A stretch of DNA of 64,000 nucleotides, taken from Escherichia coli (GTDB lineage: Bacteria > Pseudomonadota > Gammaproteobacteria > Enterobacterales > Enterobacteriaceae). The stretch is taken from NCBI RefSeq assembly GCF_013122565.1, contig NZ_CP053258.1; one strand, given 5' to 3'. Below are positions 21,419 to 28,126 of the stretch, one piece after another. Both the position numbers and the translations under genes were made by a program. The first letter of the stretch is position 1. Each line of letters starts with the position of its first letter. The notes beneath the pieces were generated by a model, which saw nothing but the letters and a program-made list of their open reading frames with translations, ran no database searches and had not been told where the DNA came from.

Positions 21419-22426
<1,008 letters not shown>

Positions 22427-22755
22427 CTATTTGTTAGTGAATAAAAGGTTGCCTGTAAAATTACAAAAACCTTACGCAGCGTCAAGCGGAATCGTGTCAA
22501 TCATTGCGACAAATCAATCCTGTGCCTAAGCATTACGCGACTGACTCGCCTCACTCTTCCTTTGGGCTTGAGACCACATGGGGTCGGCGCCCCGAATTTT
22601 AAAGGGCAATTACGATAAAAATGTGATTTTCATCACGATTTAGGTGCAGCCATTTCGTCGAGATCAAGTTTAGGACAAAATTTTACCAGTTGGTGTTAAT
22701 GTTTTGTTAGAATCAGTCACGTAATGTGAGCACGATTAAAGTGAGATGTGAGCAA

Positions 22756-23169
22756 ATGGCTAATAAACCTTCGGCAGAAGAACTGAAAAAAAATTTGTCC
22801 GAGATGCAGTTTTACGTGACGCAGAATCATGGGACAGAGCCGCCATTTACGGGTCGTTTACTGCATAACAAGCGTGACGGCGTATATCACTGTTTGATCT
22901 GCGATGCCCCGCTGTTTCATTCCCAAACCAAGTATGATTCCGGCTGTGGCTGGCCCAGTTTCTACGAACCGGTGAGTGAAGAATCCATTCGTTATATCAA
23001 AGACTTGTCACATGGAATGCAGCGCATAGAAATTCGTTGCGGTAACTGTGATGCCCATCTGGGGCATGTCTTTCCCGACGGGCCGCAGCCAACGGGCGAA
23101 CGTTATTGTGTTAACTCTGCCTCTTTACGCTTTACCGATGGCGAAAACGGCGAAGAAATCAACGGTTGA
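22756..23169 (+). CDS. msrB: Peptide methionine-R-sulfoxide reductase
   Basis: 137 aa with CxxC...CxxC zinc site. Confidence 0.9.
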
Positions 23170-23210
23170 AAAAACGATTCAGCAACTTATTCCACAGGAG
23201 CGGAAAAATT

Positions 23211-23483
23211 ATGAATCTTGATGACATTATCAACAGCATGACGCCTGAGGTATACCAGCGTTTGTCGACCGCCGTTGAACTGGGGAAATGGCCTGATGGC
23301 GTTGCGTTGACCGAGGAACAAAAAGAGAACTGCCTGCAACTGGTGATGCTGTGGCAAGCCCGCCATAATACCGAAGCACAGCATATGACAATTGACACAA
23401 ATGGTCAGATGGTCATGAAGAGCAAACAGCAGTTAAAAGAAGATTTTGGTATCTCAGCAAAGCCTATTGCCATGTTTAAGTGA
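23211..23483 (+). CDS. yeaC: DUF1315 protein
   Basis: 90 aa from MNLDDIINSM. Confidence 0.85.
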   Translation: MNLDDIINSMTPEVYQRLSTAVELGKWPDGVALTEEQKENCLQLVMLWQARHNTEAQHMTIDTNGQMVMKSKQQLKEDFGISAKPIAMFK

Positions 23484-23592
23484 ATGAGTTATCTAGTATT
23501 TAAGCCTGTTATTAAGGGAGGGCAAATATACTTGTTCGGACGTCGTGTTTTAGCTGCAAGTAGGTTAAATGCAACACTGACAAGTATTATCT

Positions 23593-23623
23593 GGCCTACA
23601 ATGTCATTGAGGAAATGTAGGCC
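23593..23623. repeat. Hairpin (REP-like fragment) in yeaC-pncA intergenic junction
   Basis: ggcctaca-N15-tgtaggcc. Confidence 0.4.
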
Positions 23624-23643
23624 AGAGATGAATTCAACTAAAA

Positions 23644-24285
23644 TTACCCCTGCGTCTCTTCCCAGTCTGCCAGCGTATATAGCGTTGCCCCAGCTGCTGA
23701 CATTTCCATAAACGCGTGCGCACTGTCCTGTGGCTGGATATTCACCCCACGACAGCCATCGATAATCACGTTTACCTTATAACCTAACTGTAACGCGTCC
23801 AGCACGGTAAACTTCACGCAATAGTCAGTCGCCAGGCCCATAACGATCAATTCATCGATTTCATGATCGCGTAACCAGTCATCAAGCGAGGTTTTCTGCC
23901 GACGGCCGTTATCAAAAAAGGCACTGTAACTGTCAACTAAAGGATTTTCGCCTTTATGGAACACCGCTGCGATCGCTTTTTGGTTCAGTAACGGATGTAA
24001 TTGTGCGCCTTCACTGTTCTGCACACAGTGATCTGGCCAGAAGGTTTGTGGCAAACCGTCGAGTTGGCCTGGCGTATAAGGCTCTACACCGTGCTGACTG
24101 GCAAAACTGCCGTGATTCGCCGGGTGCCAGTCCTGACTGGCGATAACCGCTTCACCGCGCGACTGGCACCAGTCAATCAGGCGGTTAGCGACATCCACCG
24201 TACTGTCACCTTCCGGCACGGCGAGCGCGCCACCAGCACAGAAATCATTTTGTAAATCGACCAGTAACAGGGCGCGAGGGGGCAT
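23644..24285 (-). CDS. pncA: Nicotinamidase / pyrazinamidase
   Basis: 213 aa from MPPRALLLVDLQNDF. Confidence 0.9.
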   Translation of the reverse strand: MPPRALLLVDLQNDFCAGGALAVPEGDSTVDVANRLIDWCQSRGEAVIASQDWHPANHGSFASQHGVEPYTPGQLDGLPQTFWPDHCVQNSEGAQLHPLLNQKAIAAVFHKGENPLVDSYSAFFDNGRRQKTSLDDWLRDHEIDELIVMGLATDYCVKFTVLDALQLGYKVNVIIDGCRGVNIQPQDSAHAFMEMSAAGATLYTLADWEETQG

Positions 24286-24295
24286 TGCAGTCTCC

Positions 24296-25312
24296 TTAAT
24301 CATCCGGCGTCAGTTCGCCGCGCAGGTTTTGGCTCATGGCCTTGCGAATGGTTTCAGTATCCAGTTCCTGGCTAAGCAGGTAATGCAGTTTGGTTAGCGT
24401 GGCTTCTACAGTCATATCTGCACCGCCAATTACGCCGGCATGGGCGAGGGCGTTACCGGTGGCATAACCACCCATGTTCACTTTACCGGACATACATTGT
24501 GTCAGGTTGACCACCACAATACCGCGATCGCTGGCTTCTTGTAATTCCTGCAGGAAGGCTTTGTTTTGTGGCGCATTACCCACGCCATAGGAGCGCAGAA
24601 TCAATGCTTTCACCGGTTGGCGCAGAAAATTGCGCACGACGTCAGCAGAAATCCCCGGATAAATCGTCACTACGCCAATTGGTTGCGGGGTGATTGGATG
24701 AACGATCAATTCCCCATCACCGTGCGGGGCGGGTGGCGTATTCAAACGACGAATATGGATACCTGCTTCCAGTAACGGAGGAAGGTTTGGAGAGGCAAAC
24801 GCATCAAAACCATCGGCATGGGCTTTGGTAGTGCGGTTGCCGCGATACAGTCGGTTATTAAAAAAGAGTGTTACTTCGTTGATCGGATAATTCGCCGCAA
24901 CGTACAACGCATTCAGCAGATTAATTTGTCCGTCAGAGCGTAGCTCAGCCAGCGGGATTTGTGACCCTGTCACAATGACCGGTTTACCGAGATTCTCGAG
25001 CATGAACGACAGCGCAGAGGCGGTATACGCCATCGTGTCGGTACCGTGTAGAATGACAAAACCATCATAGTCGTCATAGTGCGCTTTAATATCTTCAGCA
25101 ATATGCTGCCAGTCTTCCGGCGTCATATCTGAAGAATCCATCAGTGGCGTATATTCATGAATGGTGAAATCTGGCATCTCCGGGCGATGGAATTCCGGCA
25201 TCAGCGCCAGTTGGCGTTGTAGATGACCTGACACCGGTATATAACCCTGCTCGGAACGCTGCATCCCGATGGTCCCGCCCGTGTAGGCAACGTAAATTGA
25301 TTTCTTTTGCAT
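24296..25312 (-). CDS. ansA: Cytoplasmic L-asparaginase I
   Basis: 338 aa MQKKSIYVAYTGGTIGM... Confidence 0.92.
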   Translation of the reverse strand: MQKKSIYVAYTGGTIGMQRSEQGYIPVSGHLQRQLALMPEFHRPEMPDFTIHEYTPLMDSSDMTPEDWQHIAEDIKAHYDDYDGFVILHGTDTMAYTASALSFMLENLGKPVIVTGSQIPLAELRSDGQINLLNALYVAANYPINEVTLFFNNRLYRGNRTTKAHADGFDAFASPNLPPLLEAGIHIRRLNTPPAPHGDGELIVHPITPQPIGVVTIYPGISADVVRNFLRQPVKALILRSYGVGNAPQNKAFLQELQEASDRGIVVVNLTQCMSGKVNMGGYATGNALAHAGVIGGADMTVEATLTKLHYLLSQELDTETIRKAMSQNLRGELTPDD

Positions 25313-25390
25313 GATATTGATATGAATGATATCGAAAGAGCAAAAGTATATACGTGAGGGGCAGCGAGCGCACCTGGATACTCTGTGGAT

Positions 25391-25440
25391 ATGAGAAAAG
25401 TCCGGCAGGACGGAGGGATTAGTGTCCCGCCGGAGAAAAG
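25391..25440 (-). terminator. Stem-loop downstream of the extra lipoprotein gene
   Basis: Minus strand: tccggcgggac-12 nt loop-gtcctgccgga then cttttctc. Confidence 0.4.
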
Positions 25441-25443
25441 TGG

Positions 25444-26166
25444 TTAATCCTGCAACGCATAGGTTACGGTCGTGACTACGCGTACCGTTTTATTAATCGC
25501 CGTAGGATCATCTTCATCACTGCCACTGGCAAAGATCTGGAATACGCCTTGTGAGGCATCGCTAATTGACCCCACCTGGCTACCTGAGTCCGTTGCAAAT
25601 TGTAGTGCGGCGTTGCGTGCATCTTTGGTGGCGGCAGCAATCATCTCAGCGCGCAGTGCGCCAATACCATTAAAGCGATAGGCGACTTTGCTCTCAGCGA
25701 TAGCGCCATCTGTAGCGACTTGCAGTTCGTTTAATTTCGCGACGACTTTTTCGACAGCAGCAACATTATGGGTTTTTATCGTCACTGACCCGTCTGCGTT
25801 ATAGCGTGGCATTGTGGGATCATCTTTCAGATAGAAGGAATCTGTTCGCTTGCTTGTCCATTGGCCCAGGATTATCTCTTTCTCGTTAATCCCCTGAGCA
25901 TTGAGTTCGGCAACAATTTTTTTCTGCGCGTCTTCCAGTTTCGGGAACAGTTCGCCGGGAACATTACCTTTAAAGTTAAGCGCAATTATTAATTCTGCCG
26001 TATCTGCGCGAACTTCTTTTTCAGAAAGCCCGCGCACATTGACATAACGGTTGTTGGTTTTTAAATGTTTAACACCATCGCCAACAAAATAACCACAGGC
26101 GCTAATCCCCAGTCCGAGGACGATAGCGGCAATTAAAGAGGGGGCCTTGTTCACTGATGACTCCAT
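25444..26166 (-). CDS. Predicted lipoprotein, SIMPL/DUF541-like (BP26/YggE-type) domain; no K-12 counterpart at this position
   Basis: 240 aa from MESSVNKAPSLIAAIVLGLGISA|C (lipobox ISAC); SIMPL-like pattern VNVRG...ADTAEL..., C-terminal KTVRVVTTVTYAL; ORF stays open upstream to a GTG at 26256, so the start is uncertain. Confidence 0.7.
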   Translation of the reverse strand: MESSVNKAPSLIAAIVLGLGISACGYFVGDGVKHLKTNNRYVNVRGLSEKEVRADTAELIIALNFKGNVPGELFPKLEDAQKKIVAELNAQGINEKEIILGQWTSKRTDSFYLKDDPTMPRYNADGSVTIKTHNVAAVEKVVAKLNELQVATDGAIAESKVAYRFNGIGALRAEMIAAATKDARNAALQFATDSGSQVGSISDASQGVFQIFASGSDEDDPTAINKTVRVVTTVTYALQD

Positions 26167-26269
26167 ATCAGATGCTAAATGAGCAAGGGAATGTAGTGGA
26201 GAGAGGGAGTGAAAGACAGTCCGATTCAGGAGTGTGGCCGACAGCATATCGGCCACATTTTTGCAGGAT

Positions 26270-28126
26270 TTAACGCACGTTGGCGCAGGTCAGGCAAAAC
26301 GCATAACGGTTTTGTGGGTCGTTAAACGCCGCCAGCTTGTCGCTTTCACTTTTAACGGTAGAGGCTACCGAGGCCAGCGGTGCAGGTAACATGGCCTGGA
26401 ACGCATCTGGCAACATTGCCCGGACAGAACCAGACATGTTGTCCATCACTTTGTCGAAGAAGGTCGGTTCATCAACGTAGTATTCCAGATGCCACTGTTT
26501 CACTTTTGCCAGCTCTGCTGCTTTGGCGACCGCATCATCGAAATCCCCGAGACTATCGACCAGCCCGTTAGCTTTTGCGTCCTGACCGGTCCAGACGTGG
26601 CCCTGGGCGATTTTATCAATCTGCTCCGGCGTCGAATGACGCGCATCAGCAACCAGCGTGATAAAGCGTTTATAGCCATTCTCAATGCTTAACTGCATCA
26701 TCTGCTGCGCTTCCGGCGGCAGTGCCCTGGTGATAGAAACATCCGCCAGCGGTGAAGTTGAGACACCATCAGTATGAACACCAATCGAATCCAGACTATT
26801 TTCTACGGTGGTGATCACGCCGAAGATACCGATAGAACCGGTCAGGGTGCTGGGGTTAGCCACAATGTAATTAGCTGGCGTGGAAATCCAGTAACCACCA
26901 GATGCCGCCATGCCGCCCATCGATACAACCACAGGCTTACCCGCAGCCCGGGCTGCTGCCAGTTCAGCGCGAATCACTTCAGACGCGGTAACGCTGCCGC
27001 CTGGGCTATTAACACGCAGAACAATCGCTTTCACTTTCGGGTCAAGGCGAGCGTCGCGGATTTGTGCCGCAGTGGTATCACCGCCAACATTCCCCTGAGT
27101 TTCCTCGCCATCCATAATTGCGCCATTAGCGAAGACGACACCGATGCTGTCACCGGTATCTGCTGGCGTTTTCAATGCGTAATCGTAATAACTGATGGCG
27201 CGATAATTTTTATCAGTCTTACTCCAGCCGAACTCTTTGGTCAGAGCTTTTTCGATTTCGGCACTCGATGCCAGTGCATCGACCAGCTTGTTTTCCAGCG
27301 CATATTTCGCGGTATCGCCACCGGTTTTGGTTAAACCTTCAAGCAACCCTTGCGCGCCAGGAAATACCTGCTGAGCAGGGATCTGCCGGTTAGCGGCAAC
27401 AGTATTCAGATAGTTTTGCCACAGCTCACCAATCCAGCGGCTGTCAGCTTCGCGGGCTGCCGGTGACATATCATCACGAATAAACGGTTCAACGGCAGAT
27501 TTATACGTACCCACGCGGAACACATGGGTGGAAACTTTCAGCTTATCCAGCAACGATTTGTAGTACAGACCGTTGGTGGCAAAGCCGTGTAGATCAACCA
27601 CGCCTTGCGGAGACAGCCAAATTTTATTGGCGAAACTGGCGAGATAATATTGCCCCTGGCTGTAGTTCTCGCCAACGGCATAAACCGGTTTCCCGCTGTC
27701 ACGAAACTCTTTCAGGGCTTTGCCGATGTACTGCATAGACGGCTGGTCGCCGCCTGCGAAGTTTTTCAGATCCATCACGATACCGGTGATATTGCGGTCG
27801 TCCTTCGCCTGGCGAATGGTGTTGACGATATCAAACAGTGAGTTTTCCTGCAGACGATCGGAACTGGCACCAAGTAGTTGGCGGCTTAATTTACTAAACC
27901 GCTGAGAACTGTCGGGTTTATCGACGATTACACCAGAAATGTCCAGCAGCAGTGCACCACGACTGGCCGTTTCTTTCGAATCACCACCACTGACCTGCAT
28001 CCAGATCCCCACACCAACCAGCACGAGAAAAATAAAGAACAGGTTAAGTACCATTTCACGGACGAAATTCAGCAGACGCCACGTCCATTTAAAAAATCCG
28101 GCAATAAATCGCCAAAGGGTTCGCAT
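26270..28126 (-). CDS. sppA: Signal peptide peptidase A (protease IV)
   Basis: 618 aa from [12 protein letters not shown]. Confidence 0.9.

Follow-up and report, generated by a model that had tools for sequence, protein, structure and literature searches.

Why is the spacer between sppA and ansA several times longer in some Escherichia coli strains than in K-12, and what does the additional sequence encode? In the 64,000-nucleotide stretch of E. coli DNA analysed here (the window; contig NZ_CP053258.1 of assembly GCF_013122565.1) the two genes are separated by 957 bp, compared with 166 bp in MG1655 (b1766 ends at 1850693 and b1767 starts at 1850860) and likewise 166 bp in a K-12-like genome. 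The original prediction that an extra open reading frame lies between these genes and is missing from K-12 is thus confirmed. The frame is on the minus strand and is open without interruption from the stop codon at 25444-25446 to position 26256, with potential products in the ORF list of 270 residues from the first GTG, 240 residues from an ATG at 26166, and 236 residues from a GTG at 26154.

The 240-residue product was the one proposed at first, with no Shine-Dalgarno sequence evident before it, and both of these points need correction. E. albertii and E. fergusonii conserve the GTG at 26154 as their start codon, and an Escherichia-like lineage (L089) has an ATG there; in all three, the start codon is preceded by a conserved AAGGAA or AAGGAG. 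The ATG at 26166, by contrast, is an AAG in the first two. Because the conserved GTG lies behind a GGAG Shine-Dalgarno sequence (Table 1), the product is 236 residues long and not 240. PGAP annotates a coding sequence of identical extent in other genomes, and the product is identical in sequence to RefSeq protein WP_171459301.1. The features of the region are collected in Table 1.

Table 1. Features of the sppA-ansA region, in window coordinates
Feature	Coordinates	Strand	Evidence or remarks
ansA (asparaginase I, 338 aa)	24296..25312	-	Co-oriented downstream neighbour of the SIMPL gene
ansA-proximal intergenic segment	25313..25398	-	88-90% identity among SIMPL-plus and SIMPL-minus Escherichia haplotypes; absent from other genera
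Terminator-like hairpin 3' of the SIMPL stop	25392..25434	-	25401-25434 folds at -21.2 kcal/mol, z -6.76
Segment swapped in the K-12-type 'empty' haplotype	25399..26232		834 nt: leader, CDS and 5' part of the terminator; alignments
SIMPL-domain CDS	25444..26154	-	236 aa, GTG start, TAA stop 25444-25446; ORF list, PGAP, exact-sequence look-up, Pfam
SIMPL domain codons (residues 42-236)	25447..26031	-	Pfam, 58-sequence alignment, AlphaFold, Foldseek
N-terminal hydrophobic export/anchor segment, residues 4-26 (APSLIAAIVLGLGISACGYFVGD)	26077..26145	-	Hydropathy, lipobox rule, AlphaFold
Shine-Dalgarno GGAG	26161..26164	-	6 nt upstream of GTG 26154; overlaps ATG 26164-26166
Hairpin just 3' of the sppA stop	26233..26257	-	-19.7 kcal/mol, z -4.95 against shuffles; inverted repeat
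sppA (signal peptide peptidase, 618 aa)	26270..28126	-	Co-oriented upstream neighbour of the SIMPL gene

A full-length Pfam match, about 400 homologues and purifying selection show that this is a real gene, far beyond what chance would produce. It is an ordinary accessory gene that is known already, being annotated both by RefSeq and by the Sakai reference for O157:H7, and its importance extends little beyond annotation hygiene. What is added here is the corrected start and its Shine-Dalgarno sequence, the recognition that the gene is genus-specific, old and selected, the placement of its product in a C. jejuni-type subfamily and not with YggE, and the finding that its lipoprotein label is unproven. 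Taken together, the data are best explained if the window encodes at 25444-26154 (minus strand) an exported SIMPL protein of the C. jejuni SIMPL-like subfamily, and we consider this overall explanation probably correct.

The family assignment is secure. Pfam PF04402 (SIMPL/DUF541) matches residues 42-236 along the whole of the model (positions 1-205 of 205; i-Evalue 1.4e-16, 61.8 bits), in agreement with the family named in the original prediction. The AlphaFold model of the product (pLDDT 89.7) retrieves the C. jejuni structure 7C50 in Foldseek searches with E 4e-17, a TM-score of 0.80 and 32% identity, and Brucella BP26/Omp28 (4HVZ), an exported periplasmic protein of the same fold, with E 1e-11 and a TM-score of 0.53. 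The sequence itself finds PDB 10am (E 5e-27) and 7C50 (E 2e-25), and in profile searches these matches strengthen to E 5.9e-65 (positions 7-236) and E 1.8e-62, respectively. The predicted structure is therefore consistent with the SIMPL fold of the solved BP26 and cjSLP proteins. A 58-sequence alignment has invariant columns within the domain, where conservation is highest from M171 to G203 (MIAAATKDARNAALQFATDSGSQVGSISDASQG); elsewhere along the protein, residues R36, V38, V40, G42 and E45 are also conserved, and G21 and G25 in the N-terminal segment are nearly invariant.

The likeness to the C. jejuni SIMPL-like protein (7C50/7C51, and the full-length 'Periplasmic protein' 10am with nine chains) runs from end to end at 32% identity, and the two proteins have in common an N-terminal hydrophobic helix, the motif RxVxVxGLxE and the block ATxxARNAAxxFAxDSxSxxGxIxxASQG. 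This end-to-end homology, N-terminal helix included, assigns the product at the sequence level to the cjSLP-type membrane-anchored subfamily. BP26 is a distant relative with only 18% identity, a TM-score of about 0.5 and a profile match of E 3.7e-5; its signal peptide is cleaved and it forms a soluble 16-mer. We know of no biochemical function established for the SIMPL family so far. Literature searches on the C. jejuni structures 7C50 and 10am, and on the gene itself (WP accessions and ECs2473), recovered nothing on the former and no expression, localisation, phenotype or functional study of the latter. The neighbourhoods of four distant homologues (P0049, P0038, P0069 and P0013) contain no conserved partner gene, and PADLOC gave no defence-system match.

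Another E. coli member of this Pfam family is YggE (b2922, DUF541), and resemblance to YggE and BP26 had been suggested at the outset. The suggestion stands at the level of the Pfam family and, for BP26, as a distant fold match, but the product is not an orthologue of YggE: the NCBIfam equivalog model for YggE (NF008299, 'oxidative stress defense protein') scores only 16 bits (E 0.006) where the curated cut-off is 249, and a BLASTP comparison with MG1655 YggE detects no pairwise similarity (E = 35). The two genes also differ in that yggE is a core gene at another locus and the gene beside sppA is accessory. YggE has a cleaved signal peptide, so that its anchoring would be unlike that of the product described here. 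These differences, together with a profile alignment (hhalign) that reaches 25% probability over half of the protein, make it improbable that the product acts as a functional YggE paralogue in defence against periplasmic oxidative stress, for example from tellurite or peroxide, even though both proteins belong to one Pfam family and a protective effect of yggE expression against tellurite-generated oxidative stress is reported for E. coli (Acuna et al. 2009, as cited in PMC12489995). The role that we would favour, tentatively, is a non-enzymatic one, structural or protective, in the cell envelope, perhaps as a BP26-like oligomer; this is the weakest step of the explanation because no member of the subfamily has a demonstrated function.

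How the protein is held in the envelope depends on its N-terminal segment, which would provide Sec targeting and a membrane tether and place the SIMPL domain in the periplasm. Residues 7-25 have a mean Kyte-Doolittle hydropathy of 2.12, and AlphaFold predicts a single helix over residues 4-30. The original prediction described a lipoprotein signal peptide, and the Sakai orthologue ECs_2473 is likewise labelled 'putative lipoprotein'; in that case Lgt/Lsp would process the protein at L-G-I-S-A/C20 to give a lipid-anchored mature form, for which the Gly at +2 would predict sorting to the outer membrane. The E. coli allele does fit a lipobox. The Cys20 codon (26095-26097) lies within the lipobox-like string ISAC, and a hand-coded rule in the style of PROSITE PS51257, requiring that [LVI][ASTVI][GAS]C close a signal peptide whose n-region is basic, is matched by LGISA-C20 with K3 in the n-region. 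Moreover, the cysteine is kept in all four diverged Escherichia-lineage alleles despite protein divergence of up to 32%, which favours lipidation over a plain signal-anchor, and three of the four (E. coli, E. albertii and L089) pass the rule with Cys20 and Lys3. In E. fergusonii, however, the box reads ITVC, with a Val at -1 that falls outside the rule, and cysteine at this position is restricted to six Escherichia-lineage sequences among 110 full-length homologues. The other 104 have L, A, M, G or S or cannot be placed there, including P0009 and P0010, which are 65-67% identical to the product, and the N-terminal segment of the C. jejuni protein (PDB 10am) has neither Cys nor lipobox. The hydrophobic stretch and the predicted helix also continue past Cys20 and take in the conserved motif G-[YF]-F-[IV]-G (GYFVG, GxxxG-like). 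On balance we think it probable that the tether is a transmembrane signal-anchor that stays uncleaved, like the conserved N-terminal transmembrane helix found elsewhere in this family, and give a true lipoprotein a smaller though substantial chance. The widely copied label 'putative lipoprotein' is unproven.

The gene is present in 943 of 5426 complete E. coli genomes, including O157:H7, O145:H28 and O25b:H4-ST131 strains, and is missing from K-12 and from about 83% of the complete genomes; in 4473 of the 5426 the match is restricted to the first 86 nt beside ansA. The O157:H7 Sakai orthologue (ECs_2473, NP_310500.3) and the RefSeq alleles of EDL933 (WP_001030441.1) and ST131 (WP_001030438.1), both named 'SIMPL domain-containing protein', occupy the same locus between sppA and ansA and have the same 236-residue extent. 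At 97-99% nucleotide identity to the window these are allelic variants with no substantive difference. The coding sequence is intact, and not a pseudogene, in every SIMPL-positive genome listed (about 80 of the 943). Since it is intact in ST131 and O157:H7/O145:H28 and absent from laboratory strains, the gene is a cheap knockout candidate for envelope or stress phenotypes.

The order sppA-SIMPL-ansA recurs in E. albertii, E. fergusonii and L089, and the 90% protein cluster of the product also includes members from E. marmotae and Shigella flexneri. About 75 other species of Enterobacteriaceae lack the gene at this site (of 77 AnsA-seeded loci spanning it, L007-L086, 74 belong to other genera, and none of these has a SIMPL gene there), and the sppA-ansA gaps at AnsA-seeded loci of other genera are mostly 53-140 bp. 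This distribution points to an old, Escherichia-specific acquisition. Between species dN/dS is 0.06-0.14, which indicates purifying selection.

These observations leave little room for a recent horizontal import as a small genomic islet, or for a decaying non-functional ORF, either of which we consider extremely improbable. The GC content of the gene (48%, against 51-53% in the flanks) and its GC3 (46% against 53-56%) are slightly below those of its neighbours, and the nearest relatives outside Escherichia are proteins of 49-59% identity, mostly from metagenomic assemblies. But occupation of the same site in several Escherichia species together with the low dN/dS effectively refutes import and decay alike, the intact coding sequences speak against decay, and a search of the sppA-ansA interval for marks of a genomic island found no integrase, transposase or IS element, tRNA target or long target duplication, only short border repeats. 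These repeats (10-nt inverted, 25446-25455 and 26261-26270; 11-nt direct, 25305-25315 and 26259-26269) were considered as mobile-element ends and rejected, because neither E. albertii nor E. fergusonii conserves them and their frequency is, by our estimate, compatible with chance. The earlier view of a near-native composition and of an old accessory gene in place of a recent import is therefore upheld, with divergence that scales with that of the flanks. A further question is which haplotype is the older. The K-12 type has an unrelated 46-nt stretch where the window has 834 nt, and the flanking genes are 97-100% identical in the two, whereas identity is only 79-93% over the approximately 90 nt that border the indel on either side, which bears on how old the polymorphism is. 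Whether K-12 lost the gene or preserves a pre-insertion state is judged here by phylogenetic parsimony. By that argument the gene quite likely entered the spacer in a forerunner of the whole genus and subsequently disappeared, apparently in one old event, leaving an 'empty' haplotype that is now dominant in E. coli.

The reverse history, in which the 166-bp spacer is ancestral and the cassette arrived later, moving between Escherichia species and E. coli lineages by homologous recombination in the conserved sppA and ansA flanks, is unlikely, although it has several points in its favour. The K-12-type spacer retains a U-tract after its GTGGCC hairpin, as does E. fergusonii; its motif (AATCCTCTTCCCGC...ATATTTCCTT) is similar to the sppA terminators of Citrobacter and Enterobacter; the 46-nt filler shows no clean deletion junction; and the flanks are clearly recombining. 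A late insertion accounts poorly, however, for four diverged lineages that have the cassette at one and the same site and for cassette divergence that rises along with that of the flanks (dS against E. albertii of 1.29 for the SIMPL gene and 0.67-0.72 for the flanks, with all values against E. fergusonii saturated). Furthermore, the GTGGCC hairpin and the 86-nt ansA leader occur in both haplotypes and in no other genus, as expected if both descend from a cassette-bearing ancestor. When gap extension was made very cheap in a global alignment, the K-12 filler was spread over the coding sequence in blocks that are spurious; only the terminal blocks are homologous.

Hairpins lie on either side of the gene as originally described, and both fold far better than shuffled sequences (Table 1). 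The one next to sppA has its homologue in the sppA terminator of K-12 and of E. fergusonii, where the U-tract that follows the hairpin is retained. In the window there is no U-tract in the sppA sense, and the T-run (26258-26262) belongs to the plus strand, as had been noticed, the wrong way round for terminating sppA. A consensus scan of the region detected no sigma-70 promoter, inspection by eye of a conserved leader block (CTGAATCGGACTGTCTTTCAC) gave no convincing match to sigma-E or CpxR-like motifs, and an Rfam search of 25250-26350 at E <= 1 found no RNA family. With the U-tract lost and no consensus sigma-70 promoter detectable, read-through from sppA is a plausible source of transcripts in E. 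coli and E. albertii, and there is perhaps an even chance that the gene is transcribed at least partly in this way, with transcripts ending at the hairpin at 25401-25434. In E. fergusonii and L089 the upstream sppA terminator is intact, so at least there an internal promoter must exist that the consensus scan missed.

A broader but unlikely scenario would join several of these features: a C. jejuni-type SIMPL protein with a signal-anchor would have gained a cysteine, and with it a lipoprotein signal, in the Escherichia lineage; decay of the sppA U-tract would have coupled it transcriptionally to SppA in E. coli and E. albertii; and the result would be an ancient presence/absence polymorphism, with the cassette kept in B2 and E lineages such as ST131 and O157:H7 but gone from the K-12 type. 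If so, the cassette would mark a lineage-specific envelope function for host-associated or pathogenic lifestyles.

The only terminator-like match of the consensus scan, at 25605-25620 on the plus strand inside the coding sequence, was set aside since such matches occur at the frequency expected by chance. The hairpin beyond the SIMPL stop codon has an 11-bp stem and a 12-nt loop followed by CUUUUCUC, and went unreported by the consensus terminator scan because its loop exceeds 8 nt. A perfect 9-nt direct repeat, GAGAAAAGT, brackets this hairpin at 25393-25401 and 25433-25441.

The spacer between sppA and ansA is 957 bp in the window and 166 bp in E. coli K-12 MG1655 (b1766 ending at 1850693, b1767 beginning at 1850860), and a second, K-12-like genome likewise has 166 bp. 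The original prediction, that an extra ORF lies here between two genes that are nearly adjacent in K-12, is confirmed as an observation, and its interpretation was largely right, with three corrections concerning the start codon and Shine-Dalgarno sequence, the lipoprotein status, which is only putative, and orthology to YggE. The SIMPL gene is an accessory gene of a known family, annotated before and already known.

Features of the sppA-ansA region in the window
Feature	Coordinates	Strand	Details
sppA	26270-28126	minus	co-oriented with SIMPL gene and ansA; ORF list
Shared end, sppA side			sppA stop and GTGGCCGA...TCGGCCAC hairpin; alignment of haplotypes
sppA-side hairpin	26233-26257		-19.7 kcal/mol; z -4.95 versus shuffled sequence
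Conserved block, ~21 nt	26210-26232		sense CTGAATCGGACTGTCTTTCAC; just downstream of sppA hairpin
SIMPL gene	25444-26154	minus	236 aa
Direct repeat, perfect, 9 nt	25393-25401 and 25433-25441		GAGAAAAGT; brackets terminator hairpin 25401-25434
SIMPL downstream hairpin	25401-25434		-21.2 kcal/mol; z -6.76 versus shuffled sequence
Shared end, ansA side			last ~90 nt before ansA; alignment of haplotypes
ansA	24296-25312	minus	co-oriented with SIMPL gene and sppA; ORF list

In the ORF list the minus-strand frame opens at 26256 and closes with its TAA (25444-25446), and the product had been started at an ATG at 26166 (MESSVNK..., 240 aa). However, E. albertii and E. fergusonii both have AAG in place of this codon, and they have in common with the window a GTG four codons further on (26154 in the window), which follows, with a spacing of 6 nt, ATGGAG in the window and AAGGAG or AAGGAA in the other two. 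The more divergent L089, a metagenomic contig of an Escherichia-like lineage, has an ATG at the equivalent position with AAGGAA in front. Because the GTG and Shine-Dalgarno sequence are conserved and PGAP gives the same extent in other genomes (711 nt, 236 aa), the product is M-NKAPSLIAAIVLGLGISACGYFVG.... The Shine-Dalgarno sequence thought to be missing is GGAG at 26161-26164, overlapping the ATG first proposed.

Comparison of the interval with 5426 complete E. coli genomes finds it whole in 943, always in single copy and always chromosomal, with its gene annotated as 'SIMPL domain-containing protein'; among the carriers are O157:H7 (EDL933; also Sakai, where it is ECs_2473), O145:H28 and O25b:H4-ST131. 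In 4473 genomes the match is confined to 86 nt beside ansA at 80-90% identity. The window's exact product is WP_171459301.1 / QJU24010.1, which falls in a 90% cluster of 642 proteins, some of them labelled E. marmotae or Shigella flexneri. The order sppA-SIMPL-ansA recurs in E. albertii (SIMPL protein 86-87% identical), in E. fergusonii (69%) and on L089 (SIMPL 68%, SppA 90% and AnsA 99%). An AnsA-seeded scan of one genome per bacterial species returned 80 loci, 77 of them spanning sppA-ansA, and 74 of these, all from other genera, have no SIMPL homologue between the two genes; sppA adjoins ansA in Citrobacter, Salmonella, Enterobacter, Klebsiella, Kosakonia, Kluyvera, Cedecea, Erwinia and others, with gaps mostly of 53-140 bp. 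The nearest proteins outside Escherichia are 49-59% identical, mostly metagenomic, and homologues there lie in unrelated gene contexts. The shared order within Escherichia and its absence from these 74 loci argue that the SIMPL gene is an old, genus-specific acquisition.

The spacer has also taken other insertions in other genera (L011, L049, L063 and L078). In Citrobacter werkmanii (L011, 2278-4500) a 2.2-kb insert encodes, from its translations, an apparent AraC/GlxA-type regulator and a multi-pass membrane transporter, possibly EamA-type, and in Raoultella and one Klebsiella MAG the gaps are 400-750 bp.

The SIMPL gene has dN/dS values of 0.06, 0.12 and 0.14 against E. albertii, E. fergusonii and L089 (0.01-0.05 for sppA and ansA in the same comparisons) and is under purifying selection. 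Against E. albertii its dS (1.29) is comparable in magnitude with that of the flanks (0.67-0.72), and its GC content is 48% (GC3 46%) versus 51-53% (GC3 53-56%) for its neighbours, all of which fits the earlier view of an old accessory gene and not a recent import. In E. fergusonii (L005/L006, 2009-5843) SppA is 86.6% identical to that of the window, with sppA/ansA dS saturated at 1.7-2.9. This divergence is far above that usual between E. coli and E. fergusonii, and suggests that in one species or the other recombination has replaced the region with that of a more distant lineage.

Homology between the window and K-12 haplotypes is limited to the ends of the interval; where the window has 834 nt (25399-26232), K-12 has an unrelated 46 nt. 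Both shared ends are specific to Escherichia, other genera having different terminators and no 86-nt ansA leader, and the cassette is present in all sampled Escherichia species; secondary loss in the K-12 type is therefore the more parsimonious reading, and a probable one, and we consider it unlikely that the K-12 type instead preserves an allele from before the insertion. The empty haplotype looks like a single class across the 4473 genomes. Because identity between the window and K-12 falls to 79-93% in the approximately 90 nt that border the indel on either side, versus 97-100% in sppA and ansA, the presence/absence polymorphism itself is old.

The hairpins described on each side of the gene are both present and far stabler than shuffled sequences. 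In E. fergusonii and the K-12 type the sppA hairpin is followed in the sppA sense by a U-tract (AUUUUUUUG and AUUAUUUUUU), forming a predicted canonical intrinsic terminator. E. albertii and all the SIMPL-positive E. coli compared (the window, EDL933, Sakai, ST131 and TB06051) lack the U-tract (CAC/ACUCCUG) and retain only a 5' A-run, which explains why a T-run had been seen on the 'wrong' strand. As a consensus scan also finds no sigma-70 promoter in the 115-nt leader, it is reasonable to infer that the SIMPL gene would be transcribed by read-through from sppA. The upstream terminator is intact in E. fergusonii and L089, so at least there a promoter invisible to the scan must exist, perhaps at the block CTGAATCGGACTGTCTTTCAC. 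E. coli, E. albertii and E. fergusonii all retain this block, and L089 part of it (a CGGACT core), while the remaining leader has diverged; it matches no motif that we recognise, and is a candidate promoter or regulatory site. Downstream of the gene each lineage has its own hairpin and U-run. That of the window carries ACUUUUCUC in the sense strand on both sides of its stem, an arrangement that E. albertii and E. fergusonii lack; it might have arisen by a small duplication or mark where a palindromic unit was inserted.

The proposed SIMPL/DUF541 assignment holds, with a full-length match to Pfam SIMPL (PF04402; E 1.4e-16, positions 1-205 of 205). The suggested likeness to YggE does not extend to orthology: the product reaches 16 bits with the NCBIfam YggE equivalog, whose cut-off is 249, BLASTP against MG1655 YggE gives no significant match (E = 35), and a profile of 58 homologues aligns with only half of YggE at 25% probability. 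The true kin are a distinct subfamily. The profile aligns over the full length of two solved Campylobacter jejuni proteins, PDB 10am (231 aa, 9 chains, labelled 'Periplasmic protein'; E 5.9e-65) and 7C50/7C51 (labelled 'SIMPL-like protein'; E 1.8e-62), and Brucella BP26 (4HVZ) scores only E 3.7e-5; searching with the single sequence gives the C. jejuni pair E 5e-27 and 2e-25, in that order. An AlphaFold model on the 58-sequence alignment (mean pLDDT 89.7) matches 7C50 (E 4e-17, TM 0.80 on target, identity 32%) and BP26 (E 1e-11, identity 18%) in Foldseek, in a PDB copy of releases up to April 2026 from which 10am is absent. PADLOC has no match for the gene, and Rfam none in the sppA-ansA region.

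The E. coli N-terminus fits a PROSITE-style lipobox rule, with K3 leading into a hydrophobic core and then L-G-I-S-A-C20, as the earlier lipoprotein call implied, and the Sakai reference labels the gene 'putative lipoprotein'. However, among 110 full-length homologues the Cys20 position is L in 24, A in 23, M in 22, G in 12, S in 6, I in 2, T in 1 and C in 6 (14 were not placed by the search motif), the six with Cys are all Escherichia-lineage alleles, and the E. fergusonii box, ITVC, violates the -1 rule. Hydrophobicity also continues past the Cys into a near-invariant G-[YF]-F-[IV]-G (G21 and G25 at least 90% conserved), with a mean hydropathy of 2.12 over residues 7-25, and residues 4-30 are a single continuous helix in the model. 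The subfamily architecture is thus predicted to be a SIMPL domain in the periplasm, tethered by a transmembrane anchor at the N-terminus, and a signal-anchor is somewhat the likelier reading of this N-terminus. Since the Cys is kept in alleles differing by up to 32%, Escherichia may have turned the family anchor into a lipoprotein signal; lipidation of Cys20 is a lesser but real possibility.

The nine chains of 10am are of a full-length C. jejuni homologue including the hydrophobic N-terminus; a literature search found no paper describing the entry, which may give an account of oligomeric state in the subfamily. BP26 forms rings. With the GxxxG-like anchor motif these are weak hints, from which we tentatively suggest that the SIMPL protein could be a periplasmic protein, tethered to a membrane and possibly oligomeric, that serves the envelope in a structural or protective way and not as an enzyme. 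A literature search found no demonstrated activity for any member of the C. jejuni-type subfamily, and we know of none. In the wider family, E. coli expressing yggE is reportedly protected against the oxidative stress that tellurite generates (Acuna et al. 2009, as cited in PMC12489995), and BP26 is described in PMC7697752 as a periplasmic immunogen and reported adhesin.

Elsewhere in the window, pncA (23644-24303) directly adjoins yeaC and msrB (22726-23483; junction region 23166-24303), without the ~9-kb ydjE-ydjL block that K-12, Sakai, EDL933 and ST131 have between them and that E. fergusonii also lacks; this pncA-yeaC adjacency occurs in at least 1091 of the 5426 E. coli genomes. A group of E. 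coli isolates, mainly human and one canine (H35-H43 among the genome matches to 21500-26400, each matching in two pieces), carry an IS200/IS605-family tnpA within the gapA-msrB-yeaC-pncA-ansA-SIMPL stretch.
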